Source of the DNA: an uncultured Chitinophagaceae bacterium
GTDB taxonomy: Bacteria; Bacteroidota; Bacteroidia; Chitinophagales; LD1
Length of the DNA: 64,000 bases
Direction of reading: 5' to 3'
NCBI GenBank assembly: GCA_964537475.1
Contig: CAZIBY010000001.1
Coordinates: forward strand, 476,938 to 540,937
Shown here: positions 10,312-54,925 of the stretch, piece after piece
Position numbering within the stretch: position 1 is the first letter of the stretch
Layout of the letters: each line of letters opens with the position of its first letter
Program-made: the position numbers and the translations under genes
The notes under the pieces: model-generated
Told to the model about the DNA's origin: nothing
Database searches by the model: none
The model's input: the letters and a program-made list of their open reading frames with translations, nothing else

Positions 10312-10362
10312 GCTGCGAAAGTAGAAAAGTAATCTGCTGAAATACAAAATGCGTCTGTCCGA

Positions 10363-10423
10363 CCTTCTGGAGTTGTCCCCCGGGAAGGGCCGGGGAAGAG
10401 GTTCAAGCGAGCACGCTTGAATC
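10363..10423. repeat. Composite hairpin repeat R0 (degenerate ccttctggagttgtcccccgggaagg plus ggttcaagcg-agca-cgcttgaatc)
   Basis: The first hairpin resembles the cttccggagttgtactccggaag element of 12962-12984. The second belongs to the ggttcaagcg/cgcttgaacc family also seen at 13596-13619 and 49600-49623. Confidence 0.6.
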
Positions 10424-10452: not shown

Positions 10453-12087
10453 TTATTCTTTAACAACTACACGCGTGATGCATTGGTCCGCTGTTAGGAC
10501 TTCGAGGAAATAGCTACCCGCGGGCAAAGTATGAATATCGATCATTTTGGTATATGAGGATGCGAGGCCGTCATCCTGACTTCTATACAATATTCGTCCG
10601 CTCAGGTCGGAGAGGGTAAAGTTGGCACTATGCAATACGCTGCTCTCTAAATGAACGGAGATATCACTGGTGGCCGGGTTGGGATAAATAGAAAATTGCA
10701 AATCTCCTGCGACCTCCTGCACAGCGGTCATAACGGTGTCGCAATATTCCACCATCCAGTAGTCAACGTCTCCTCTGCATGCTTGCGATTTGTCGCCTCC
10801 AATGTCAGCCGGAGTAGATACGCCAACTGCGAAGCAATGCAAAGAAACCTCCGTAGCACCCGCAGCTATATCATTAGGAAAACTCGTGAGCGCTGTCTTA
10901 TCCCAAACACGATGCATCTGCGAATCGATCTTGAGAGACCAGACCTGGATATTGCCCAAGTTATCTTCTGTTTTATCATCGCCTTTATATGGGCCAGATA
11001 TGCCGCTGAGGATGCAGCCGCCGTCAGATGTGCCAGATATGCTACCCAATGTCTCTGCACAGTATCCCGTGCCGAATCCCCAATCCCCGAGTTTGTTGCC
11101 AGCCAGGTCTATTTTGACCACCCAATAGCCACATTGCGTTGCTGTCTTATTACCACTGACTCCCGAAATAGTGCTACCGCCGATCAGGACATTACCGTCA
11201 TGATCGCTGATCAGCCCTGCAAAGCGTACGAAATCAGTAGTGCCATATACTCTATCCCATTGTTTGTTTCCCACAGAATCTGTTTTTACCACCCATATGT
11301 TATAAGGATTTGTAAATTGTCCATGAAAATTCATCTGGGTCTTATCGAAACTTGTATCACCTAAAGCTAGTCCACCTAGTAGATAGCCGCCGTCAGAGGT
11401 TTGCAGGATGCTTGTGCAGGCTTCGTCACCTGCTGTGCCGAATCGCTTATCCCACTGCTTGCGACCATTGCTGTCTATTTTTACCATCCAGTAGTCGTCA
11501 GAGTTTTCGCTTGCGTCATGGTTATCCTGAGTTTTGTCTCCGCTTACTCCAGAACTTGAACGGCCACCTAAAACGTACCCTCCATCTTTAGTTTGCTTCA
11601 TACAGTAAAGGTCGTCGCCTCCGAGACCACCATAGCGCTTATCCCATTGCTTATTTCCATTTCTATCTACTTTCACTACCCAATAATCCCATCCGCCTCT
11701 TGACGACTCAGATTTGTCATAACCACTGTCCGAAGCACTAGAGCCTCCGATGAGAGAGCCACCATCTTTAGTTGCGCAAATTGCTGTAAGAAAATCATTA
11801 TTTGAACCGCCGAATCTTCGGTCCCAAACATACTGCCCTTGTCCATCTGACTTAACGATCCAATAATCTCCGGTATTGAATAGACAAGATTGTGTTTTAT
11901 CTCCACTGATTGGGGAGCCAGAATAGCCCGCTAAAATGAAGCCGCCGTCATTTGCCTTGACCAACGACGCCATTGGGTCATAACCTGTTCCACCGAAACG
12001 CGCATCCCATTGCCTGTGCATGGCGACCTGGGCGAAAGTCGACCCAAACGAAACCCACCAACATGCAAGGAGTAATGTTGCTTTCAT
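10453..12087 (-). CDS. T9SS C-terminal sorting-domain protein with repeated GDKTQ / DYW-VK-D-GN-QWDKR-GG units
   Basis: Signal peptide; about 7 repeats of ...SGDKTQ...DYWIVK.D..G...WD.RFGG...; C-terminal FSIYPNPATSDISVHL...LPAGSYFLEV is the type-A Por secretion tail. Confidence 0.85.
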   Translation of the reverse strand: MKATLLLACWWVSFGSTFAQVAMHRQWDARFGGTGYDPMASLVKANDGGFILAGYSGSPISGDKTQSCLFNTGDYWIVKSDGQGQYVWDRRFGGSNNDFLTAICATKDGGSLIGGSSASDSGYDKSESSRGGWDYWVVKVDRNGNKQWDKRYGGLGGDDLYCMKQTKDGGYVLGGRSSSGVSGDKTQDNHDASENSDDYWMVKIDSNGRKQWDKRFGTAGDEACTSILQTSDGGYLLGGLALGDTSFDKTQMNFHGQFTNPYNIWVVKTDSVGNKQWDRVYGTTDFVRFAGLISDHDGNVLIGGSTISGVSGNKTATQCGYWVVKIDLAGNKLGDWGFGTGYCAETLGSISGTSDGGCILSGISGPYKGDDKTEDNLGNIQVWSLKIDSQMHRVWDKTALTSFPNDIAAGATEVSLHCFAVGVSTPADIGGDKSQACRGDVDYWMVEYCDTVMTAVQEVAGDLQFSIYPNPATSDISVHLESSVLHSANFTLSDLSGRILYRSQDDGLASSYTKMIDIHTLPAGSYFLEVLTADQCITRVVVKE

Positions 12088-12111
12088 TTCTTGAAGTTAA
12101 TCATAATTTAA

Positions 12112-12155
12112 CCCGCCCTTCCGGAGTTGTATCCCGCTCTTCCGGAGTTGTACTC
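12112..12155. repeat. Hairpin-repeat element R1 (two half-copies cccgcccttccggagttgtat + cccgctcttccggagttgtactc, right arm missing)
   Basis: The 23-mer 12133-12155 is repeated exactly at 12956-12978. Homologous to 48059-48103. Confidence 0.8.
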
Positions 12156-12171
12156 GCTAAATATTATATTT

Positions 12172-12615
12172 TTATTTAAATACAAAAAAAATATTATTAA
12201 AAGCTAATAACTCGTTTTGTTCTGTACCATAGCTTAAAGTATTTTCATCCGCCTTACAAACAATTGATTTAAGAATATCGTTATCATATATATTGAAAAT
12301 ATATTCTACTTTTTCATCGTATATTAGGAATTGTGTAGAGTAATCTGTAGCATATTTCCGACATTGGGTAAAGGGTATTTGAAATTCTTCCGTCCCTACG
12401 AAACCTATTGTCTTAACAGAGTCATACAACGTATCTTTTGAAATAAATATCGACTTGAATAATTGATTGTTAGGGATAATAAAAATGTTTTGTACATTTC
12501 CAATAACATCAACATAGTTAATCTTTCCCAATAAATCAATAAATTCTTTTATAGTCTGGTTTTGTGAAGTTATTCTTCTATAGAAATATTCCATCCATAT
12601 AGTACCTTTATTCAT
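12172..12615 (-). CDS. Immunity-like small protein (hypothetical) downstream of the toxin-like ORF
   Basis: 147 aa, very AT-rich, ATG start, 10 nt downstream of the 12626 ORF stop. No recognisable domain. The call rests on context only. Confidence 0.4.
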   Translation of the reverse strand: MNKGTIWMEYFYRRITSQNQTIKEFIDLLGKINYVDVIGNVQNIFIIPNNQLFKSIFISKDTLYDSVKTIGFVGTEEFQIPFTQCRKYATDYSTQFLIYDEKVEYIFNIYDNDILKSIVCKADENTLSYGTEQNELLAFNNIFFVFK

Positions 12616-12625
12616 ACTTCTAAGA

Positions 12626-13000
12626 TTAATTAGTTGGTGCAGCTGATTTCTTTAATTCGGGATTAAAATATTGAGTTCCACCACCCTTGTACGTTTGACC
12701 GGTTGTGGCATCTTTGAAATCAGCAGCAGTACTTTTTAAAACCTTCACATCTTCTGTTAAGGTAAAAGTTTGCATGGTCCGACCCTGAGTGTTAATTCCA
12801 AGGGTTGCAGGATCAGAGCCCTCCGGCGAAAAATATTTCCCTACATTGCCATCCTCTCCAACAAATTGTACAACTTTTGTCCCTTTTTTCAATATGGTGG
12901 TTTCTACTGCTTTACTGAAATCAATACCTTTCAATTTGCTAGCTATATTTTTTTCCCCGCTCTTCCGGAGTTGTACTCCGGAAGTAGCTGCTATAGGCAC
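12626..13000 (-). CDS. Orphan toxin-domain ORF, possibly TNT-like NAD+ glycohydrolase fold; lacks an ATG start
   Basis: GKYFSPEGSDPATLGI and the C-terminal YKGGGTQYFNPE resemble my memory of the TNT family motifs (G.YFSP.G ... GGG.QY). The frame is open from 13054 through repeat R2 with only a GTG at 13000, so it may be a silent module. Confidence 0.4.
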   Translation of the reverse strand: MPIAATSGVQLRKSGEKNIASKLKGIDFSKAVETTILKKGTKVVQFVGEDGNVGKYFSPEGSDPATLGINTQGRTMQTFTLTEDVKVLKSTAADFKDATTGQTYKGGGTQYFNPELKKSAAPTN

Positions 13001-13054
13001 TTGTAGTGCCGCACGTAGCGCCTGTCTTCCCGCTCCTTCCGTATTTGTAGCACG
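12956..13054. repeat. Hairpin-repeat element R2 (cccgctcttccggagTTGTActccggaag, ggcacTTGTAgtgcc, then a degenerate half-copy)
   Basis: Perfect 9-bp stem hairpin at 12962-12984 and a 5-bp stem hairpin at 12996-13010 share the TTGTA loop. Homologous to 48081-48135. Confidence 0.8.
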
Positions 13055-13171
13055 TCACTAAAACACACTCGCCCGGTTGGCCTAGCATTTTCGAACCCTC
13101 AAGTCTGAGACTTGAATCTATCCTGATGTTCAGGTTGTGCTGCGCAAAGCTTAGAACAGCAGGGCTACTAA

Positions 13172-13567
13172 CTACTCGTCTTTTTCACTAATCTTGAAGA
13201 AAATATGGATTATAGTACATAAATAAAAGGAAACAGTTAATACAAAAGACAAAGAAGATATTTTACCATAATTTAAATTGAAAATTTTAAATATACTATT
13301 AAACAGTAGCTGATGCGTAATCCCCTGATGATCCTTTAGATATCCTAAGCATGTGTCACATAGACAACAGAATGAAACAATCAAAGCTATCAATGAAAAG
13401 CTCAACCTTTTGACATTGATACTAATTAATAAAATTACAAGTGCAAATAATCTGAGTGGCAGAATTCGCCCGAAATTAGTTTGATCTAAAATGTAATCTT
13501 TTGAAATTACTACGATAATAGTTAGTAGCAAAAAATTTAGAAGTCTGCCCAAAGTTCTGCTCTTCAT
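13172..13567 (-). CDS. Small polytopic membrane protein (hypothetical), AT-rich
   Basis: From the internal ATG, MKSRTLGRLLNFLLLTIIVVIS..., with about 4 hydrophobic helices. The upstream part of the track ORF (to 13813) overlaps a terminator and the tRNA, so it was trimmed. Confidence 0.5.
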   Translation of the reverse strand: MKSRTLGRLLNFLLLTIIVVISKDYILDQTNFGRILPLRLFALVILLISINVKRLSFSLIALIVSFCCLCDTCLGYLKDHQGITHQLLFNSIFKIFNLNYGKISSLSFVLTVSFYLCTIIHIFFKISEKDE

Positions 13568-42999: not shown

Positions 43000-45900
43000 A
43001 TGCAGCTGACCACTCTCGAGATCAAAGGATTCAAGAGCTTCGCCGAGAAGACCACGATCCACTTTAATAATAACATCACCGGCATAGTCGGGCCAAACGG
43101 CTGCGGCAAGTCTAACGTAGTGGACTCGATCCGCTGGGTACTGGGCGAGCAGAAGACCTCCATGCTCCGTCTGGAGAAAATGGAGAACCTGATCTTCAAC
43201 GGTACGCGTAGCCGTAAGCCCTCTGCATTGGCCGAAGTGTCACTGACCTTTGAGAATACCAAGAACCTCGTTTCCTCAGACTACAAGACGATCACGATCA
43301 CGCGCCGCCTCTTCCGCGATGGTGAGAGCGAGTACCGGCTGAATGATGTGGCATGCCGCCTCAAGGATATCACCACCCTCTTCATGGATACAGGTGTCAG
43401 TCCTGACAGCTACGCCATCATCGAGCTGGGCATGGTAGACGAGATCCTGAATGACCGCGACCAGTCTCGCCGCAAACTCTTCGAGCAGGCTGCCGGCGTA
43501 TCCAAATACAAGAAACGCAAGAAGGAAACCGTAGACAAACTGAAGGCCACCGATGCCGATCTGGAGCGTGTCAAGGATCTCCTCTTTGAAATAGAAGGCC
43601 AGCTCAAGACACTGGAGAAGCAAGCTGCAAAGACCAAGAAATTTTACGAACTCAAAGACGAATACAAGAACCTCTCCCTCATCCTCGCCAAGTTCTCCCT
43701 GCAGGAGTACAAGCAGTCCTTCAAGGACCTGGAGGCGCGCCGCCAGACCGAGGACGACCGCAAACTCGAACTCGAGACAGCCATCAAGACTGCCGAGGCT
43801 GCGCTGGAAAAAGAAAAGCTCGACAACGTAGACAAAGAGCAAGGACTCATGGAGGTGCAGAAGAAACTCAACGCCCTCGTGAGCGGCGTGAGCGAGCGCG
43901 AGAACGAGCGCAACCTGCTCAACTCTCAGTTGAAATTTGCTCATGACAAACTCGACACTGCACAGAAGCAGATCATAGATGCCAATGACCACGTAGAGAA
44001 GCTCAAGATCTCTATCGAGAAACTGGACGCAGACAATGCTACCGAGGGCGCGATCCTCGAGAGCCGCAAAGCGGAGCTGACCGTGCTGGAAGACGCGCTA
44101 AACGAGATACGCGACCATCACAATAAGATCAAGGAAAGCCTCAGCTCTGAGCAGAAGCTCTACGCCGAGCAGGAGCGCCAGATATTTGAGCTGGAGAAGC
44201 GCCTCGCTGTGAATCGCAGCAGCACTGAGGCCTTTACCCGTGAGCTGGGCCAGAGCGAACAGGACACCATAGCCAAGCGCAATGAACTCAAAGAACTCCA
44301 ACAGCAGCTGGCCGACTACCGCGCCGAGCAGGAGCGCAGCGATGTGCGCCTGCGCACCCTGATAGAAGAGGAAGAAAGCCGCAAGGAGCAGATCGCCGAG
44401 CTGGAGCAGGCCATAGAGAAGACTCGCGCCGAACTCACACAGGAGACCCGCACCCTCGATGCCAAGCGCAACGAATATGAACTGACCAAGAGTCTCGTGG
44501 AAAACCTCGAGGGCTTCCCCGAGTCTATCAAATTCCTGAAGAAGAATGCCAAGTGGAGCCAGGAGGCCCCGCTCCTCTCTGATATCCTCTACACCTCTGA
44601 GGAGTACCGCGTAGCGATAGAGAACTACCTCGAGCCATACCTCAACTACTATGTGGTTCAAAACATAGAGGAGGCGATCATGGCTGTCAAGCTCCTCTCC
44701 GACTCCGCAATGGGCCGCGCCAACTTCTTCATCATGGATGATATACAGAAGTACGAGCCTAAGCAGACTGCAGCCATAGAGGGCGCTATCCCTGCCACGC
44801 AGATCGTAGAGTTTGATGCGGCGTATGCCAAACTCAGCTCCTTCCTGCTAGATGGTGTCTACATGATAGATGACTCCGCCGGCTTTGATCCCGAGAAGCT
44901 CAATACCAACGGTCAGAAGGTCGTGCTGCTGACCAAGACGGGCAAATACATCCGCCGCGACTTCTCTCTCAGCGGTGGCGCTGTGGGCCTCTTTGAGGGC
45001 AAGAAGATAGGCCGGGCTAAGAACCTCGAGAAGCTGAAAGAAGAGATCGAGAAGCTGGAGCGCACCACGTACACACTGCACACCAAGGTCTCCGACGCCC
45101 TCATCAAAGTGAACGGCCTCAAAGCCGCCACACAGGGCAAAGAAATAGAGCTGCAACGCTCCGTGCTGAATCAGGTCAATAACCGCCAATCTGCTACAGA
45201 GGCCAGCATCCAGAGCCTGGAGAAATTTCTCGAGTCATCTGACAGCAAGAGCAAGAATATAGCAGACCGCCTGCAGGCCCTCACTGACGAGGTAGACCTG
45301 ATCAATGACCAGCTCGCTACCCTGCGCGATGCTCAGGCAGATGCCAAGGCGGCCCTGGACCAGACAGACAAGGAGTTCGTAGACTTTACCAATCGCCTCA
45401 GCGAGGCCTCGGCCAAGTTCAATGCCAAGAACATTGAGTTTCACCAGCAGCAGAACCGTGTCAATACCATCGTGCAGGAGCTGAACTTCAAGAACTCTCA
45501 GGTAGAGTCCTTCACCACGCAGCTCACGCGCAATAACGATGTGATCATCGAGTCGCAGATGGTGATAGAGGAGAGCCAGGCCAAGCTCAAAGAGATAGAG
45601 AGCCACCTCCTGGAGGGCTATACCAATAAGGAAGCCATAGAAAAGGAAGTAGCCGAGACCGAAAAGAACTACTACGCCTCCCGCGGCGCTATCAATGAGA
45701 TAGATGCCAATATCCGCGAGCTGGCCCGCGGCCGTGACAGCATCAATGTGCTGATAGCCGACATCGCGGAAAAGTTTAACGAGCTGAAGCTGAACCTCGC
45801 CGGCCTGCGCGAGCGCCTCAGTGTAGAGTTTAACGTCAATGTGAATGACATCATCAATGAAGACCTCGACCCTAAGTGGAACCGCGACGAGATAGACCAG

Positions 45901-46539
45901 GACCACCAGAAGATCAAGAAGCGTATCGAGGGCTTTGGCGAGATCAACCCGATGGCCGTAGAGGCGTACAATGAGATGAAGGAGCGCTTTGACTTCATCG
46001 TAGCGCAAAAGAAAGACCTCGAGGACGCCAAGACCTCCCTCATGGACACCATCAAGGAGATAGACGACTCGGCCAAGACACAGTTCCTCGACGCCTTCTA
46101 CAAGGTGCGCGAGAGCTTCATCCGCGTCTTCCGCACACTCTTCAGCGAGGAGGACCAGTGCGACCTCTTCCTCACCACGCCTGACGATCCGCTCGAGTCA
46201 CGCATAGAGATCATAGCCAAGCCTAAGGGCAAGCGCCCGACGGTCATAGACCAGCTCAGCGGCGGCGAGAAGACCCTCACAGCCACCGCGCTGCTCTTCT
46301 CCCTATATTTATTGAAGCCGGCACCGTTCTGTATCTTCGATGAGGTAGACGCCCCGCTGGACGACACCAACATCGCCAAGTTCAACAAGATCATCCAGGA
46401 GTTCTCCAAAGACTCCCAGTTCATCATCGTGACGCACAATAAGCAAACCATGTCATCAGTAGAAGCCATCTACGGCGTGACGATGGTGGAGCAGGGTGTG
46501 TCACGAGTAGTACCTGTGAATTTTAGTAGTTTGAATTAG
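43000..46539 (+). CDS. smc: Chromosome segregation protein SMC
   Basis: Walker A GPNGCGKSN, long coiled-coil arms, a central hinge, signature LSGGEKTLTA, Walker B FCIFDEVDAPLD. Confidence 0.97.
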   Translation: MQLTTLEIKGFKSFAEKTTIHFNNNITGIVGPNGCGKSNVVDSIRWVLGEQKTSMLRLEKMENLIFNGTRSRKPSALAEVSLTFENTKNLVSSDYKTITITRRLFRDGESEYRLNDVACRLKDITTLFMDTGVSPDSYAIIELGMVDEILNDRDQSRRKLFEQAAGVSKYKKRKKETVDKLKATDADLERVKDLLFEIEGQLKTLEKQAAKTKKFYELKDEYKNLSLILAKFSLQEYKQSFKDLEARRQTEDDRKLELETAIKTAEAALEKEKLDNVDKEQGLMEVQKKLNALVSGVSERENERNLLNSQLKFAHDKLDTAQKQIIDANDHVEKLKISIEKLDADNATEGAILESRKAELTVLEDALNEIRDHHNKIKESLSSEQKLYAEQERQIFELEKRLAVNRSSTEAFTRELGQSEQDTIAKRNELKELQQQLADYRAEQERSDVRLRTLIEEEESRKEQIAELEQAIEKTRAELTQETRTLDAKRNEYELTKSLVENLEGFPESIKFLKKNAKWSQEAPLLSDILYTSEEYRVAIENYLEPYLNYYVVQNIEEAIMAVKLLSDSAMGRANFFIMDDIQKYEPKQTAAIEGAIPATQIVEFDAAYAKLSSFLLDGVYMIDDSAGFDPEKLNTNGQKVVLLTKTGKYIRRDFSLSGGAVGLFEGKKIGRAKNLEKLKEEIEKLERTTYTLHTKVSDALIKVNGLKAATQGKEIELQRSVLNQVNNRQSATEASIQSLEKFLESSDSKSKNIADRLQALTDEVDLINDQLATLRDAQADAKAALDQTDKEFVDFTNRLSEASAKFNAKNIEFHQQQNRVNTIVQELNFKNSQVESFTTQLTRNNDVIIESQMVIEESQAKLKEIESHLLEGYTNKEAIEKEVAETEKNYYASRGAINEIDANIRELARGRDSINVLIADIAEKFNELKLNLAGLRERLSVEFNVNVNDIINEDLDPKWNRDEIDQDHQKIKKRIEGFGEINPMAVEAYNEMKERFDFIVAQKKDLEDAKTSLMDTIKEIDDSAKTQFLDAFYKVRESFIRVFRTLFSEEDQCDLFLTTPDDPLESRIEIIAKPKGKRPTVIDQLSGGEKTLTATALLFSLYLLKPAPFCIFDEVDAPLDDTNIAKFNKIIQEFSKDSQFIIVTHNKQTMSSVEAIYGVTMVEQGVSRVVPVNFSSLN

Positions 46540-46557
46540 AAATAATATCAACAACCT

Positions 46558-47796
46558 ATGCGATTTAGTTTAAGAACCCGCTCCAATCTTTTTAACTATG
46601 AGAGGATATCAGATTACCTCAAAAGAGATTTTGAAAGAATAAAAGCGAAGATTGACGAAGCGGAAGAAAACTATTTCTTAAAAGTTGATCAACGAGAATA
46701 TGTTGAATATATGGCCGATATAAGTTTAATCGGCTTACCAGAAATCGATTTTGATGAAGTTACTTCAGATAAATATGAGGCAGAAGTACCTGCCGAATAT
46801 TTTCCTGCTAATTACGATGTAGAAGGAGGGAAAACATATAAAAGAACGATAATTCAGTTTTTTATTCCGTGTCAAGGCAACACGGATATGTTGGTATATA
46901 TCCCTAATTCTATGTTCGCTTACACCGGACAATTTCACAAAGAAGGAAGCAATATTATTCTAGAAATTATTGTATTGGATACTAATTCTGATCAAATCAG
47001 GCAACGATACAGCAATGAATTAGTTTCACTTCAATCTTATTATGATCTTCTTATAAAAGACATTAAGAATTATAATAACGAATTAATTGAAGCAATTACT
47101 TCAGTTTTTTTAAAACGGAAAGAAAAGATTACAGTAAGTAATAAGTTTTTAGAATCGATTGGGGTACCATTAAGAAAAAACAAAAATATCCCTTCTACTT
47201 TTTCTGTGCCTAAACCTAAGTTACGTGAAAAGATAATCTTAAAACCTAGCATAAATGAAAAAACATCAGAATCAGAGCCCTCTCTTTCTGCCACCGTATA
47301 TAAGGATATATTAAAGTGTATTAATGACGTTGGCAAAAACTTCGAGCGCATGCCCAGTCTATACCAAAATAAATCCGAAGAAAACTTACGCGACCATATA
47401 TTAATGGTACTTGATCCTAATTTTCAAATGGGCAGCGCAACTGGCGAAACTTTTAATAGATCTGGCAAAACTGATATACAACTTCGATATGATAGCTCCG
47501 TAATATTTATTGCAGAGTGCAAATTTTGGAAAGGAGAAAAGTCATTTCTATTAGCCATAGACCAATTGTTAGGTTATTTAACTTGGAGAGATACAAAAGC
47601 ATCCGTAATTGTTTTTGTTCAACAAAAGGATTTCACTACAGTTTTAGGAAAAATCAAATCTACAGCATCACATCACAGCAACTACTTGAGCTTTGTATCT
47701 ATGTCAGATGAGAATTGGTTTAATTTCAAATTCCACATAAATGATGATAGAAACAGAGAAGTAAATTTGGCAGTCCAGTTATATCATCTACCTTAA
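46558..47796 (+). CDS. Hypothetical 412-aa protein with a C-terminal PD-(D/E)xK-like nuclease motif; candidate stand-alone defence or effector gene
   Basis: Strongly AT-rich (21 G+C in the first 60 nt by hand count) next to the much GC-richer smc. C-terminal ATGETFNRSGKTD(306)IQLRYDSSVIFIAE(320)CK(322)FWKG fits D-x13-E-x-K. The N-terminal 260 aa are unrecognised. Confidence 0.7.
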   Translation: MRFSLRTRSNLFNYERISDYLKRDFERIKAKIDEAEENYFLKVDQREYVEYMADISLIGLPEIDFDEVTSDKYEAEVPAEYFPANYDVEGGKTYKRTIIQFFIPCQGNTDMLVYIPNSMFAYTGQFHKEGSNIILEIIVLDTNSDQIRQRYSNELVSLQSYYDLLIKDIKNYNNELIEAITSVFLKRKEKITVSNKFLESIGVPLRKNKNIPSTFSVPKPKLREKIILKPSINEKTSESEPSLSATVYKDILKCINDVGKNFERMPSLYQNKSEENLRDHILMVLDPNFQMGSATGETFNRSGKTDIQLRYDSSVIFIAECKFWKGEKSFLLAIDQLLGYLTWRDTKASVIVFVQQKDFTTVLGKIKSTASHHSNYLSFVSMSDENWFNFKFHINDDRNREVNLAVQLYHLP

Positions 47797-47805
47797 TAGC
47801 TACCT

Positions 47806-48162
47806 ATGTTTATTACTAAAAAGACCTGCGAAATAGTTGTTAGCTTTTGCAATGAGCAAATTGTTCCAGATTCGAAGTACCATTTATCTATAAAGAAAAC
47901 TGAACATTCAATTGAGTGGTTTAAGCGATATTTTGACTTTATAAAAAACTCAACACTACAACTGCATTTAGCAGATGCGTACTATCAATCTCGGTTTGTT
48001 TATAAACTTATGGCAGGACTGAGACTAACGTCTTTTAAGCGTGGTGCTATGCTAAAGTCCTGCCCTTCCGGAGTTGCACACCCGTCCTTCCGGAGTTGCA
48101 CTCCGGAAGTAACTATTATAGGCATTTGTAATGCCGATAAACAGCCTTCACTCCTGTATTAA
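47806..48162 (+). pseudogene. Probable truncated gene: AT-rich N-terminal ~85 codons fused to read-through of repeat R3
   Basis: Composition changes abruptly at about 48055. The last ~35 codons (CPSGVAHPSFRSCTPEVTIIGICNADKQ...) translate the hairpin repeat, which is also 'translated' at 12789-13061. Confidence 0.4.
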
Positions 48163-48170
48163 TTCGCCCA
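48059..48170. repeat. Hairpin-repeat element R3 (uninterrupted form: two half-copies, cttccggagTTGCActccggaag, ggcatTTGTAatgcc, tail)
   Basis: Hairpins at 48087-48109 and 48121-48135. Homologous to R1+R2 (12112-13054) and R4 (49514-49598). 28 nt, catttgtaatgccgataaacagccttca, are identical to R4. Confidence 0.8.
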
Positions 48171-48207: not shown

Positions 48208-48666
48208 CTACTCACTCACCGTGCCAGACAGCACCTGCATAGTATCATCCGGCGCAAAGTAGTTGGCCATGCGCATCGAGTCAGGTAGGTAGATCGATAT
48301 TTTGCCACCGTTTACCTTCACTGTAGCGGTCTGTCGTGGTGAGCCCAGCGCCGTGTATTCCTGCGCGGCGTTCATCCATAGGATAGCCACCTGACCTGCA
48401 GCCGTGGGGCCAAAGCCGCTCACTATCGTATAGCTGCCACTCTGCGTCGGGTATCCGTTGTAGAAGTAGAAGCTCAGGTAGGAATGATATACACCCGTAT
48501 CTCCGGTCATCGTGAGTTCGGTCTGCGCCACCGTGCGGTCCGAGCTATGCACCGCATACGTCTGCCCCTGGAAGGTGTATTGATTCACAAACGGCACCAC
48601 AGTCTCTGTTTTCTTGCAGGCAGCCAGCAGCAGCAGGCAGCCGATCACGACCAGTATCCTTTTCAT
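48208..48666 (-). CDS. Hypothetical lipoprotein
   Basis: Lipobox MKRILVVIGCLLLLAACKK. No domain recognised. Confidence 0.6.
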   Translation of the reverse strand: MKRILVVIGCLLLLAACKKTETVVPFVNQYTFQGQTYAVHSSDRTVAQTELTMTGDTGVYHSYLSFYFYNGYPTQSGSYTIVSGFGPTAAGQVAILWMNAAQEYTALGSPRQTATVKVNGGKISIYLPDSMRMANYFAPDDTMQVLSGTVSE

Positions 48667-48743: not shown

Positions 48744-48792
48744 GCTGTTCGTAGTCCGAAGGAGGGGATGTGGGTGTGCGACTACGAACCTT
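48744..48792. repeat. REP-like hairpin, left flank of the transposase (gttcgtagtc ... gactacgaac)
   Basis: 10-bp stem at 48747-48756 / 48780-48789 with a 23-nt loop. It is an inverted copy of 49391-49437. Confidence 0.8.
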
Positions 48793-48831
48793 CAATTGCA
48801 CAACTAGCCACCTTCTTGCTACCTTAGCCCC

Positions 48832-49386
48832 ATGCCAGATGGAGGATATAAAATCAGAGATCAAAACGCAGTGCACTACGTCACATTCAGCGTAGTCGAG
48901 TGGGTAGATGTATTCAGCCGGGCAGACTATAGGCATATACTGCTGGACCACATTAGAAAAAGCCAGAAGGATGGCGGCCTGTCCCTTCACGCATGGGTGC
49001 TGATGACCAACCACTTTCATGGCGTCATGTCTGCCAAGGAAGGATTCGCACTGAGCGATATACTGCGCGACATTAAAAAATACTCTGCTACCAATATCAT
49101 CAAAGCCATACAAAACCACGACAAAGAAAGCAGGCAGACATGGATGCTTGACATTTTTGCACAAGCAGGTAGTGACAATGCAAGGAATACTTCCAATCAA
49201 TTCTGGATACAGGACAATCATCCCAAGCACTGCTACAGCCGCGAGTTTACTGAGCAGAAGATCAACTATATCCATCTCAATCCTGTGAGGGCTGAGATCG
49301 TGTCGCGGCCGGAGGATTATCTATACAGCAGTGCTATCGATTATACAGGCCAGAGAGGTTTATTGGATATTGAGTTTTTGTGGTGA
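48832..49386 (+). CDS. IS200/IS605-type Y1 (HUH) transposase, REP-associated tyrosine transposase (RAYT)-like
   Basis: HUH motif in LMTNHFHGVM and the catalytic-Tyr helix KINYIHLNPVRAEIV. The single gene is flanked by inverted hairpins. Confidence 0.85.
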   Translation: MPDGGYKIRDQNAVHYVTFSVVEWVDVFSRADYRHILLDHIRKSQKDGGLSLHAWVLMTNHFHGVMSAKEGFALSDILRDIKKYSATNIIKAIQNHDKESRQTWMLDIFAQAGSDNARNTSNQFWIQDNHPKHCYSREFTEQKINYIHLNPVRAEIVSRPEDYLYSSAIDYTGQRGLLDIEFLW

Positions 49387-49390
49387 GAGT

Positions 49391-49437
49391 AGGTTCGTAG
49401 TCACCACCCGCAAGCCTGCCTTCGGACTACGAACAGC
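49391..49437. repeat. REP-like hairpin, right flank of the transposase
   Basis: ggttcgtagtc (49392-49402) / gactacgaac (49425-49434). The outer ccttcggactacgaacagc is the exact reverse complement of gctgttcgtagtccgaagg at 48744-48762. Confidence 0.8.
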
Positions 49438-49513: not shown

Positions 49514-49627
49514 CCCGCCCTTCGAGCTGCACTCCATAAGTCCTACTATAGACATTTGTAATGCCGATAAACAGCCTTCATTACTGTATTAGTTCCGCTG
49601 GTTCCAGCGACCGCGCTTGAACCGCGC
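49514..49627. repeat. Hairpin-repeat element R4 (degenerate first hairpin, conserved tail) plus ggttccagcg-accg-cgcttgaacc hairpin
   Basis: Aligns with 48081-48170 in direct orientation. The hairpin at 49600-49623 belongs to the ggttcaagcg family. Confidence 0.75.
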
Positions 49628-53433: not shown

Positions 53434-53494
53434 CGGGGCAAGATACGATTATCTTCACACCATCCGCGCGGACTACTGTGGACGATGGTGGTAC

Positions 53495-53972
53495 GTCTCC
53501 GGCGTCGACACCTCCCACTCCACACCTCCTTCACTGCCGCGCGATTGCATCGCGTGGCCCTCCTGTATAGCGTTTGCAACGCTACAAAGCCAATGCATCA
53601 GACAAAACCTATCTCTTATAAGTCTCCGGCGTCCTTAACTGCCGCGCGATTGCATCGCGTGGCACCCTTGTATAGCGTTTGCAACGCTACAAAGCCAATG
53701 CATCAGACAAAACCTATCTCTTATAAGTCTCCGGCGTCCTTAACTGCCGCGCGATTGCATCGCGTGGCACCCTTGTATAGCGTTTGCAACGCTACAAAGC
53801 CAATCCATCAGACAAAACCTATCTCCTATAAGTCTCCGGCGTCGACACTTCCCTTCACTGCCGCGCGATTGCATCGCGTGGCACCCCTGTATAGCGTTTG
53901 CAACGCTACAAAGCCAATCTATCAGACAAAAGCTATCTCTTATAAGTCTCCGGCGTCGACACCTCCCACTCC
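53495..53972. repeat. Tandem repeat array: four full units (127, 105, 105, 114 bp) plus a 27-nt terminal copy inside the adjacent CDS
   Basis: Units start with gtctccggcgtc at 53495, 53622, 53727, 53832 and 53946. Each carries the palindromes cgcgat-tgc-atcgcg and tagcgtt-tgc-aacgcta. The identical 27-mer gtctccggcgtcgacacctcccactcc lies at both ends. Confidence 0.9.
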
Positions 53973-54925
53973 ATATCTTCATCCAGGTCGTCAAACTCTG
54001 CCAACTCCGGATCCTCCTCCCGCAGGCGACGCTCTATCTCACGGATATCAGAGATCCCCACCTCCATCCGCAGCACCTCCGGCGTCAGTTCTATCGGATA
54101 GCGCTTTGCCTTCTTATCTACAGCAGTCGCCGCTACTTCATTTTCTGTTTCACGTATGACTTCATCTACCCTGACCGCCTCCGCATTTGAACTTTCCTCC
54201 TTGGTAGGGTTTTCGGAGTCACCGGCTGTTTGTATTAAGCCTTCCCCTTGGGGTAAGTCCCGAACCGTCGGGAGGGAGAGGTGGGCTGTTTGTATTAAGC
54301 CCACTTCTTCAGAGCGCCTGTCCGCTGCAGTGGAGTTTTCGGAGTCACCGGCCGTTTGCATTAAGCCCTCTCCTTTGGAGAGGGTTTGGGAGAGGACCGC
54401 CGTTTGCATTAAGCCCTCTCCTTCGGAGAGGTCCCGAACCGTCGGGAGGGAGAGGTCGGCTGTTTGTATTAAGCCCTCTCCTTTGGAGAGGGTTTGGGAG
54501 AGGACCGCTGTTTGTATTAAGCCTTCCCCTTGGGGTAAGTCCCGAACCGTTGGGAGGGAGAGGTGTCTATCCGCCTCCGCCAGGTAGCTCACATCCTCCT
54601 GCTGCGGCTCCCGGCCCCAGCCATAGTGATGCTGCAGCGTGAAGACACCCAGCCGCAGCGGTATCTTGCGCTGCGCCGTATTGGTATATATCCGCGCCTC
54701 AAAGTGCTGCATCAGCATCTTCATCTCATGGATGATCTCATAGTTGCGCGCCCATTTTTTGCGCCAGTAGCGCCAGATATCATCATAGTAGCCCGCGCGG
54801 GCCAGCGCCATGCCCAGGTAGAGCGTATCATCCATCATGGCAAATTTGTTGATCTTTTCGAGCGCCTTCATGGTCGCCTCGTAGGTCCATTTTTCCGCAT
54901 AGCGGTTTCCGTTTTCAGCTGACAT
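53933..54925 (-). CDS. Terminase-small-subunit-like N-terminal domain protein with a repeat-derived middle region
   Basis: The N-terminus NGNRYAEKWTYEATMKALEKI...LGMALARAGYYDDIWRYWRKKW...GVFTLQHHYGWGRE matches my recollection of Bacteroidota phage TerS-like proteins (GN.NA.KWT.E ... F.LK...GW). Residues ~120-240 are translated hairpin repeats. Confidence 0.55.
   Translation of the reverse strand: MSAENGNRYAEKWTYEATMKALEKINKFAMMDDTLYLGMALARAGYYDDIWRYWRKKWARNYEIIHEMKMLMQHFEARIYTNTAQRKIPLRLGVFTLQHHYGWGREPQQEDVSYLAEADRHLSLPTVRDLPQGEGLIQTAVLSQTLSKGEGLIQTADLSLPTVRDLSEGEGLMQTAVLSQTLSKGEGLMQTAGDSENSTAADRRSEEVGLIQTAHLSLPTVRDLPQGEGLIQTAGDSENPTKEESSNAEAVRVDEVIRETENEVAATAVDKKAKRYPIELTPEVLRMEVGISDIREIERRLREEDPELAEFDDLDEDMEWEVSTPETYKR
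54210..54565. repeat. Array of six hairpin repeat units (core g[gc]c[tc]gtttg[tc]attaagcc + hairpin) lying in frame inside the CDS
   Basis: Units contain ccctctcc-tttg-gagaggg, cctctcc-ttcg-gagagg and ccttcccc-ttg-gggtaag hairpins. The translated peptide repeats are GEGLIQTA / GEGLMQTA. Confidence 0.85.

Follow-up and report, generated by a model that had tools for sequence, protein, structure and literature searches.

A candidate immunity nuclease of the PDC-S54 family in an AT-rich islet directly behind smc in a Chitinophagaceae bacterium

The stretch analysed here (hereafter the window) comprises 64,000 nucleotides (nt) of contig CAZIBY010000001.1 (positions 476,938 to 540,937, forward strand), from the assembly GCA_964537475.1 of an uncultured Chitinophagaceae bacterium. 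Directly behind its smc gene lies an AT-rich islet holding an intact open reading frame (ORF) for a 412-amino-acid (aa) protein, which we assign to the candidate defence family PDC-S54, and a truncated second gene, ORF2. A first-pass annotation made from the sequence alone had proposed that this islet is a horizontal insertion carrying a stand-alone defence nuclease. The features of the locus, in window coordinates, are as follows; they include repetitive extragenic palindromic (REP) elements and a REP-associated tyrosine transposase (RAYT), and the sister locus is that of a metagenome-assembled genome (MAG).

43000-46539, plus strand: smc, 1179 aa, an ORF with stop codon TAG; core gene of native composition and left border of the islet
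46540-46557, plus strand: 18-nt spacer between the smc stop codon and the ATG of the PDC-S54 gene, where both the composition and the homology to the sister MAG break
46558-47796, plus strand: PDC-S54 family gene, 412 aa, candidate single-protein defence nuclease (PADLOC match)
46558-47172, plus strand: N-terminal domain, aa 1-205 (from the AlphaFold2 (AF2) model and the isoelectric point (pI))
47173-47286, plus strand: linker, aa 206-243, basic, proline-rich and predicted to be disordered (from the predicted local distance difference test score (pLDDT), conservation and pI)
47287-47793, plus strand: C-terminal PD-(D/E)xK module, aa 244-412 (from the domain model, the motif, Foldseek and hhalign)
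47446-47448, 47473-47475, 47515-47517 and 47521-47523, plus strand: predicted catalytic codons for E297, D306, E320 and K322, respectively
47806-48057, plus strand: ORF2 remnant, comprising the initial 84 codons of a gene whose family members are about 237 aa long (from homology; the ORF itself continues to 48162)
48058-48165, no strand assigned: REP-type hairpin repeats (repeat families D3, D8 and D9), which truncate ORF2 and form the right border of the AT-rich islet
48208-48666, minus strand: gene of 152 aa and native G+C content (GC), between the islet and the RAYT gene
48744-49437 (gene 48832-49386), plus strand: RAYT-type Y1 transposase gene with 33-nt inverted repeats, in the neighbourhood but outside the islet

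The 412-aa protein matches the PDC-S54 hidden Markov model (HMM) of PADLOC over nearly its full length (E=1.6e-132, 440.8 bits; residues 8-412 aligned to profile positions 4-407 of 410), and this was the sole PADLOC family that it matched at E≤1. There was no Pfam family at E≤1 and no NCBIfam match, and sequence searches of the PDB, with the single protein or with a 42-sequence profile, returned coiled-coil noise only. PDCs are gene families recurrently embedded in BREX, DISARM or type I restriction-modification (RM) systems (bioRxiv 10.1101/2024.01.29.577857; PMC12881386), and 145 of them entered PADLOC as untested 'guilt-by-embedding' candidates, mobilome and housekeeping families having been removed first (bioRxiv 10.1101/2024.01.29.577857). 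Judged by its sequence, the window gene is thus a further member of a catalogued, uncharacterised candidate family, and a routine PADLOC run would flag it. It agrees with PDC-S54 as held in PADLOC (Payne et al., bioRxiv 10.1101/2024.01.29.577857) in the full-length HMM match, in its length of ~410-415 aa, in the two-domain architecture and in being a single gene without a conserved partner. We found no family-level difference from other members; the window copy stands out by lying outside any recognised defence system and by being fused to the smc 3' end. The earlier proposal of a stand-alone defence gene therefore gains computational support from the PADLOC scan, in the form of a full-length match to a single-gene candidate.

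The family is large. A word-indexed search returned more than 4390 matches, and an exhaustive search (E≤1e-3) gave 3257 clusters at 50% identity, nearly all of them of ~400-420 aa and aligning end to end down to 30% identity. Members occur in bacteria, in archaea and on plasmids, with 23 plasmid records from Proteobacteria, Actinobacteria, Cyanobacteria, Planctomycetes, Spiroplasma, Deinococcus and haloarchaea, and they are rare in phages (2 records). In some databases, members carry the label 'restriction endonuclease'.

The first-pass annotation had read the C-terminal part of the protein as a PD-(D/E)xK nuclease with E297 in ATGETF, D306 in GKTDIQL and E320-C-K322 in FIAECKFW, and these residues are exactly as described. 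They are also conserved, as the annotation had asked of a true catalytic centre: E297, D306 and E320 are invariant and K322 is at least 90% conserved among 42 homologues of 30-48% identity, and all four are invariant in 44 closer homologues. Modelled alone with AF2, the C-terminal domain has a pLDDT of 86.5 and a predicted template modelling score (pTM) of 0.85, with a core of order α-β-β-β-α-β (in domain numbering, helix 34-48, strands 53-60, 63-71 and 74-83, helix 87-100 and strand 107-114). In this model E297 falls on β1, D306 where β2 starts and E320-x-K322 where β3 ends. Conservation across the family peaks in a helical segment, residues 248-289, upstream of the E...D...ExK motif.

Comparisons with known structures point the same way. 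In a Foldseek search of the PDB with the model of the C-terminal domain, the top match was McrC (7vsr_M, E=3.4e-3, probability 0.97, template modelling (TM) score 0.40), followed by YaeQ, NucS, Cdn1, DrdV and SfsA at E values of about 0.1; all of these, including the cA3-activated nuclease Cdn1 and the nuclease domain of DrdV, we take to be PD-(D/E)xK folds. When the family profile was aligned with Escherichia coli McrC using hhalign, K-T-D306 and E320-C-K322 paired with T-D...D-A-K (E=0.004, probability 8%), a segment that presumably holds the catalytic residues D244, D257 and K259 of McrC; the assignment of these residues reportedly goes back to Pieper and Pingoud in 2002. Below threshold, family members also matched DUF234, NERD, HSDR_N and Vsr in Pfam, which are all PD-(D/E)xK families. 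Mainly because of the motif and the topology, the database matches being weak, we assign the C-terminal domain as a predicted PD-(D/E)xK nuclease, an assignment well supported by motif and topology and weakly by database similarity. The earlier nuclease call is upheld in that its residues are conserved down to 30% identity, map to β1, β2 and β3, and belong to a domain whose best fold matches in the PDB are nucleases of this type.

In the AF2 model of the full-length protein (pLDDT 79.7), an N-terminal domain is joined to the C-terminal domain (residues 245-412) by a linker of low confidence, with pLDDT below 50 at residues 207-240. The N-terminal domain is modelled as three helices (residues 17-55), a β-sheet and a long helix (144-200), mostly at pLDDT 81-97. 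It is acidic (pI 4.8; family median 5.4) and the linker is basic (pI 10.1; family median 9.9), the latter with conserved residues P204, TF214-215, P218, P220 and P230. Nothing recognisable had been seen in the N-terminal part on first reading, and the searches concur: besides the missing Pfam and NCBIfam matches, Foldseek with the full-length model returned nothing below E=0.01 in the PDB or BFVD and no significant match for the N-terminal domain. A flexible two-domain model is a poor query, and better results came from the C-terminal domain modelled alone. That the N-terminal domain is a degenerate second nuclease fold arising by internal duplication was considered and is not supported, the hhalign probability against the C-terminal domain being 4%. 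Purely by inference, we propose that the N-terminal domain acts as a sensor, a regulator or an oligomerisation module.

The C-terminal module, from about residue 225-239 onwards, also occurs behind other N-termini at 56-58% identity. In protein P0247 it follows four predicted transmembrane helices, and in P0262 a repeat of about 100 aa that is present twice. This distribution indicates that the PDC-S54 C-terminal module may be a portable effector with swappable front ends.

Three known types of system invite comparison. McrC, the nuclease subunit of the type IV enzyme McrBC (PDB 7vsr chain M; E. coli b4345), is the best fold match of the C-terminal domain, its TD...D-A-K pairing with TD306 and E320-x-K322. 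The likeness is weak, however: the window protein has no McrB-type GTPase gene next to it, its ExK starts with E and not D, and the N-terminal parts are unrelated. Shedu (SduA, DUF4263) is a PD-(D/E)xK nuclease with variable N-terminal sensing or inhibitory domains. It is like PDC-S54 a single protein with a C-terminal effector of this fold and an N-terminal module swapped between subfamilies, but the likeness is functional and architectural and not one of sequence membership, as no Shedu or DUF4263 model in PADLOC or Pfam matches the 412-aa protein at E≤1. Likewise, Mrr-type type IV enzymes are stand-alone proteins with a C-terminal PD-(D/E)xK domain, the N-terminal domain of Mrr serving recognition. 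PDC-S54 differs in having no Mrr_cat match in Pfam, no match to E. coli Mrr in the nuclease region when the family profile was compared using hhalign, and an acidic N-terminal domain without a match in the PDB or BFVD.

The composition of the islet sets it apart from its surroundings. GC falls from 0.544 in smc to 0.325 across the 412-aa ORF, with the opening 253 nt of ORF2 at 0.336, and GC at third codon positions (GC3) is 0.28 in the PDC-S54 gene against 0.75 in smc. The first 60 nt of the 412-aa ORF contain 21 G+C, so the abrupt drop 18 nt past the smc stop codon that had been noted at first sight is reproduced by GC, GC3 and the 60-nt count alike. A 300-nt profile goes from 0.54-0.58 to 0.27-0.36 within 46500-48000 and then back to ~0.55, and the islet is the lowest-GC 1.5 kb in the window, at 0.325 against a mean of 0.512 with a standard deviation (sd) of 0.04, or about 4.7 sd. 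Among GTDB genomes, the PDC-S54 gene was present in 0 of 80 other species-level smc 3' flanks, in which GC dropped by at most 0.15, against 0.22 in the window. Many relatives have a short-chain dehydrogenase/reductase (SDR) or glycosyltransferase gene 3' of smc, and the content varies, with synteny past smc poorly conserved. Because of its low GC and GC3, its place as the lowest-GC stretch of the window and the absence of the gene from the 80 other flanks, we conclude that the AT-rich islet, which spans ~46540 to ~48057, was acquired horizontally and has not been ameliorated, and that the slot it occupies just 3' of smc is hypervariable; the comparison of relatives thus bears out the insertion suggested beforehand.

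One relative does carry the gene at this site. The closest homologue among 5.8 billion proteins, P0002 (65% identity), is encoded by the sister Chitinophagales MAG at locus L004, 38 nt past smc and with the same upstream genes (L004 6423-11239 versus window 43000-47796). The smc orthologue of L004 has the Pfam domains SMC_N and SMC_hinge and its product is 97.9% identical to the window SMC, against 65% for the PDC-S54 products, and at the nucleotide level identity is 94-98% up to the smc stop codon and 54-75% directly beyond it. By the Nei-Gojobori method, synonymous divergence (dS) is 0.46 and non-synonymous divergence (dN) 0.016 for smc; for PDC-S54 the synonymous proportion (pS) is 0.77, which is saturated, and dN is 0.27. 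Within PDC-S54 the C-terminal domain is more constrained, with a dN of 0.19 versus 0.34 in the N-terminal domain. Both smc-flank alleles are AT-rich (GC3 0.28-0.30). An insertion sequence (IS) element with an rve gene lies downstream of PDC-S54 in L004.

From the saturated synonymous divergence, set against that of smc, it follows that the two alleles are probably much older than the split of their hosts. This indicates that the smc slot would have been filled twice, or its allele replaced by recombination, and not inherited by vertical descent. Sister lineages with near-identical smc genes and 65%-identical alleles in one slot present the pattern expected of arms-race turnover, and constitute a natural experiment.

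A further relative, L007, whose SMC C-terminus is 97% identical, has no PDC-S54 start between smc and the contig end. That end falls at a GC-rich hairpin with a T-run (AAAGCCAGTCTcatcAGACTGGCTTTTT) 27 nt past the smc stop codon (L007 3749-3804), to which a terminator scan gave no score, possibly due to its position at the contig end. We looked for this hairpin downstream of the islet in the window and found no match within 3 mismatches, so that the insertion point cannot be placed between that hairpin and the stop codon.

Counting the sister MAG, we examined ten other genomic contexts of PDC-S54 homologues. Seven contain RM genes, other candidates, conflict-system domains or mobile-element genes; the three without these are one context among housekeeping genes, one archaeal plasmid and one phage. 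The following examples illustrate the range:

Ignavibacteria: homologue 42 nt behind a 1014-aa MmeI-type RM gene
Litoribacter: homologue beside PDC-M03A, HEPN_AbiU2, IS21 and CTD12/MC6/MC8 genes
Hymenobacter crusticola (L092 5724-17153): operon of DUF5691, MoxR (AAA_5), DUF5682, TPR-HisKA and VWA genes
Flavobacterium: homologue in an integrative element, adjoining a type I RM system with an embedded AAA_21 gene
Pedobacter: homologue near an AAA_15/21 ATPase gene, DUF4238 and IS21
Thauera: homologue between a RelE/HigA pair and RM genes on a conjugative plasmid

In Hymenobacter crusticola, the homologue lies between the MoxR and DUF5682 genes, 38 nt after MoxR, and is thus embedded in a putative operon of a system that is absent from the PADLOC list. 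The flanking genes differ in all the neighbourhoods examined and we found no conserved partner gene across them, which fits a single-gene system. As a plain count, the expectation that homologues would lie near defence genes is largely borne out for the family, at seven of the ten contexts if mobile-element genes are included, but not for the other three or for the window copy itself.

Although PDC-S54 is absent from the other smc flanks, several of those with a GC drop have other defence systems directly 3' of the smc stop codon:

L009 9267-11095, Chitinophagaceae MAG: HEC-01A and HEC-01B (E=7e-108 and 5e-29)
L041 8928-11821, Algoriphagus: EcoRII-type restriction endonuclease (type II RM), C5-methylase and Vsr
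L042 9007-11718: PD-T4-7, a RiboL-PSP HEPN protein and an NsnA/GmrSD_N protein
L024 8918-9733, Saprospiraceae MAG: ThsB-like TIR protein

When the two ORFs next after smc were pooled and scanned with PADLOC (136 ORFs from 74 species, counted per family and not per locus), one more locus emerged, with the MADS component mad3. Defence genes behind smc were thus found in about 5 of 75 species besides the clade of the window, a lower bound and a count made without a control set. These cases suggest that the 3' flank of smc serves repeatedly as a landing site for defence genes, and the core gene smc could act as an anchor for mining new ones in Bacteroidota.

The second gene of the islet, ORF2, spans 118 codons (47806-48162) and was left uncalled by gene callers. 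Over aa 2-84 it shares 60% identity with P0121 and 58% with a 240-aa protein on L095 (217-939), both members of a family without annotation that comprises 31 proteins of 215-257 aa (about 237). The homology stops at codon 84 (nt 48057), and the REP hairpins take over at precisely this point, so that ORF2 is a 35% stump whose frame merely continues through the repeat; the truncation of the second gene had been predicted on first reading, and the alignment agrees with it. Full-length ORF2 relatives were seen in two settings (L100 7001-9843 and L101 7001-14630), one of them beside CD-NTase and TIR-STING genes that form a CBASS-like pair within a mobilisable element, the other beside HATPase_c_3 and N6-methylase genes, so this may be another uncharacterised family keeping company with defence genes. 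A role for ORF2 as the conserved partner of PDC-S54 was rejected, its full-length relatives being found in other contexts and PDC-S54 homologues with other neighbours. The islet thus originally held two genes whose relatives lie near defence genes, and which are not a conserved pair.

The REP-like hairpins at the right border belong to a family with copies at 10353-10382, 12107-12157, 12951-13011, 48076-48165 and 49543-49595, sharing the core CCTTCCGGAGTTG...ACTCCGGAAG, and the element folds significantly better than shuffled sequences (z=-3.5). Beyond the islet, the RAYT-type gene matches Pfam Y1_Tnp (E=1.9e-7) and is flanked by 33-nt inverted repeats (I2) that are 85% complementary. The right border therefore shows the hallmarks of a REP/RAYT system, namely a Y1 (IS200-like) transposase, inverted repeats and dispersed palindromic REP copies. 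The first-pass annotation was right that a RAYT gene follows the islet, with the nuance that the 152-aa minus-strand gene intervenes. It was right, too, that the repeat at the islet end belongs to the family bracketing a cassette at 12.1-13.0 kb, where the copies at 12107-12157 and 12951-13011 lie on either side of this low-GC segment.

Two further observations concern the rest of the window. The stretch at ~11200-13500, which includes what had been called a toxin/immunity cassette, is the sole other low-GC stretch, its GC over 1.5 kb going down to 0.345. Tandem direct repeats occupy 53492-54564, as 4 copies of 105-114 nt (53528-53974) and 3 copies of 108 nt (54175-54564), presumably inside a gene for a repeat-containing protein.

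From these data we infer nuclease activity, an anti-phage function, sensing or autoinhibition by the N-terminal domain and co-transcription with smc. We consider with moderate confidence that the PDC-S54 gene is a nuclease-based immunity gene. Its N-terminal part would sense an infection cue or foreign DNA and hold the nuclease in check, probably in an oligomer built on the long helix 144-200, and once activated the C-terminal domain, with its McrC/Mrr-type centre E297...D306...E320-x-K322, would cut invader DNA or, abortively, host DNA. In its working the protein would thus resemble Shedu or a type IV restriction enzyme, while belonging to neither by sequence. Transcription of the gene would probably continue from smc or start at a promoter within the 3' end of smc. 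A joint transcript is plausible because the gap is 18 nt long, with no terminator-like site in it, and because no TAnnTTTG motif was found. The second cargo gene would have lost all but its first 84 codons at a later time, when REP hairpins mobilised by the neighbouring RAYT were inserted.

Several results weigh against this reading. The structure and profile matches to known nucleases are all weak (Foldseek E of 3.4e-3 and TM score of 0.40; hhalign probability of 8%), and confidence is low around E297, with a pLDDT of 61-73 when the domain is modelled alone and below 50 when the whole protein is. The N-terminal domain has no significant fold match in the PDB or BFVD, and no recognisable ligand site, that would speak for a sensing role. 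Upstream of the gene, a sigma-70 promoter scan did no better than on shuffled sequences and the 360 nt before the start contain no Bacteroidetes-type TAnnTTTG, both weak negative evidence. One homologue, on a metagenomic contig, stands alone among housekeeping genes, and the window copy itself has no known defence neighbour, being accompanied only by smc, a gene stump and REP/RAYT elements. Finally, our literature search found PDC-S54 mentioned in no paper, nor in the supplements of the defining preprint (10.1101/2024.01.29.577857).

Other readings of the same gene have to be weighed. It could be a selfish or mobility nuclease, of homing or addiction type, that serves the islet at the smc flank and confers no host immunity. 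PD-(D/E)xK folds do include homing and transposon nucleases, the gene is flanked by IS, RAYT and REP elements, plasmids carry it (23 records) and so, rarely, do phages (2 records), and repeated targeted insertion could yield very different alleles at the same site in two lineages. Yet the seven other full neighbourhoods lie at unrelated sites with no common target, and the islet itself lacks terminal repeats and encodes neither an integrase nor a transposase, RAYT/REP being a genome-wide family found elsewhere in the window; moreover, mobilome-associated families were removed before PDCs were defined (bioRxiv 10.1101/2024.01.29.577857). We thus regard this explanation as unlikely. To a defence gene whose C-terminal domain does not cleave DNA, being instead an RNase, a nucleotide-targeting enzyme or a nucleic-acid binder with its toxic output elsewhere (for example in a host partner), we grant a similarly small chance. 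The weak similarity to bona fide DNases is in keeping with it, as are the position of the most conserved block in the helical segment upstream of the motif and the pairing of an acidic N-terminal domain with a basic linker, which makes DNA binding less than obvious. Against these stand the conservation of E, D, E and K, as expected of an active metal-dependent nuclease, the DNA endonucleases McrC, NucS and DrdV among the top fold matches, and the lack of a conserved partner gene across neighbourhoods.

Still less probable, in our judgement, is that the gene is silent or decaying foreign cargo, an intact-looking hitch-hiker like ORF2 in a recombination-prone slot. It is true that the neighbouring ORF2 was destroyed by REP insertion, that the AT-richness is extreme and unameliorated, and that no promoter motif was found upstream; but the ORF is intact at the canonical length of the family and retains every invariant residue, and identical copies were assembled from several sequencing runs. 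Furthermore, dN (0.27) is well below the saturated pS (0.77) and the C-terminal domain is more constrained than the N-terminal one, which points to purifying selection. The 18-nt gap without a terminator and the same position in the sister lineage might also bring to mind a housekeeping nuclease that processes DNA and cooperates with SMC in maintaining the chromosome, a reading nearly excluded by distribution. The gene is missing from the smc flanks of the 80 other species, on which ground a core gene functionally tied to smc was rejected, and in the neighbourhoods examined homologues elsewhere never adjoin smc. In addition, the composition is foreign, the products are 65% identical where SMC is 97.9% identical, and unrelated defence systems occupy the same slot in other lineages.

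We therefore suggest annotating the gene as a PDC-S54-family putative PD-(D/E)xK nuclease and ORF2 as a pseudogene fragment. What this analysis adds to the catalogue entry is a nuclease assignment with conserved residues, a modular C-terminal effector, the contrast, at one site, of 65% identity for the PDC-S54 alleles versus 98% for SMC, and the recurrent use of the smc 3' flank by unrelated defence systems. In its broadest form, the picture would be that PDC-S54 is a real and very widespread immune nuclease (3257 clusters), that its N-terminal domain and linker form a sensing or autoinhibition module of a fold new to solved structures, and that the smc 3' flank is a phylum-wide, reused landing site for defence in Bacteroidota, in which alleles turn over faster than species form; taken as a whole, we put this forward only tentatively and with considerable doubt. 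If PDC-S54 is indeed a working defence nuclease, it would be among the more abundant uncharacterised single-gene immune systems, with a sensor domain that has no structural precedent.

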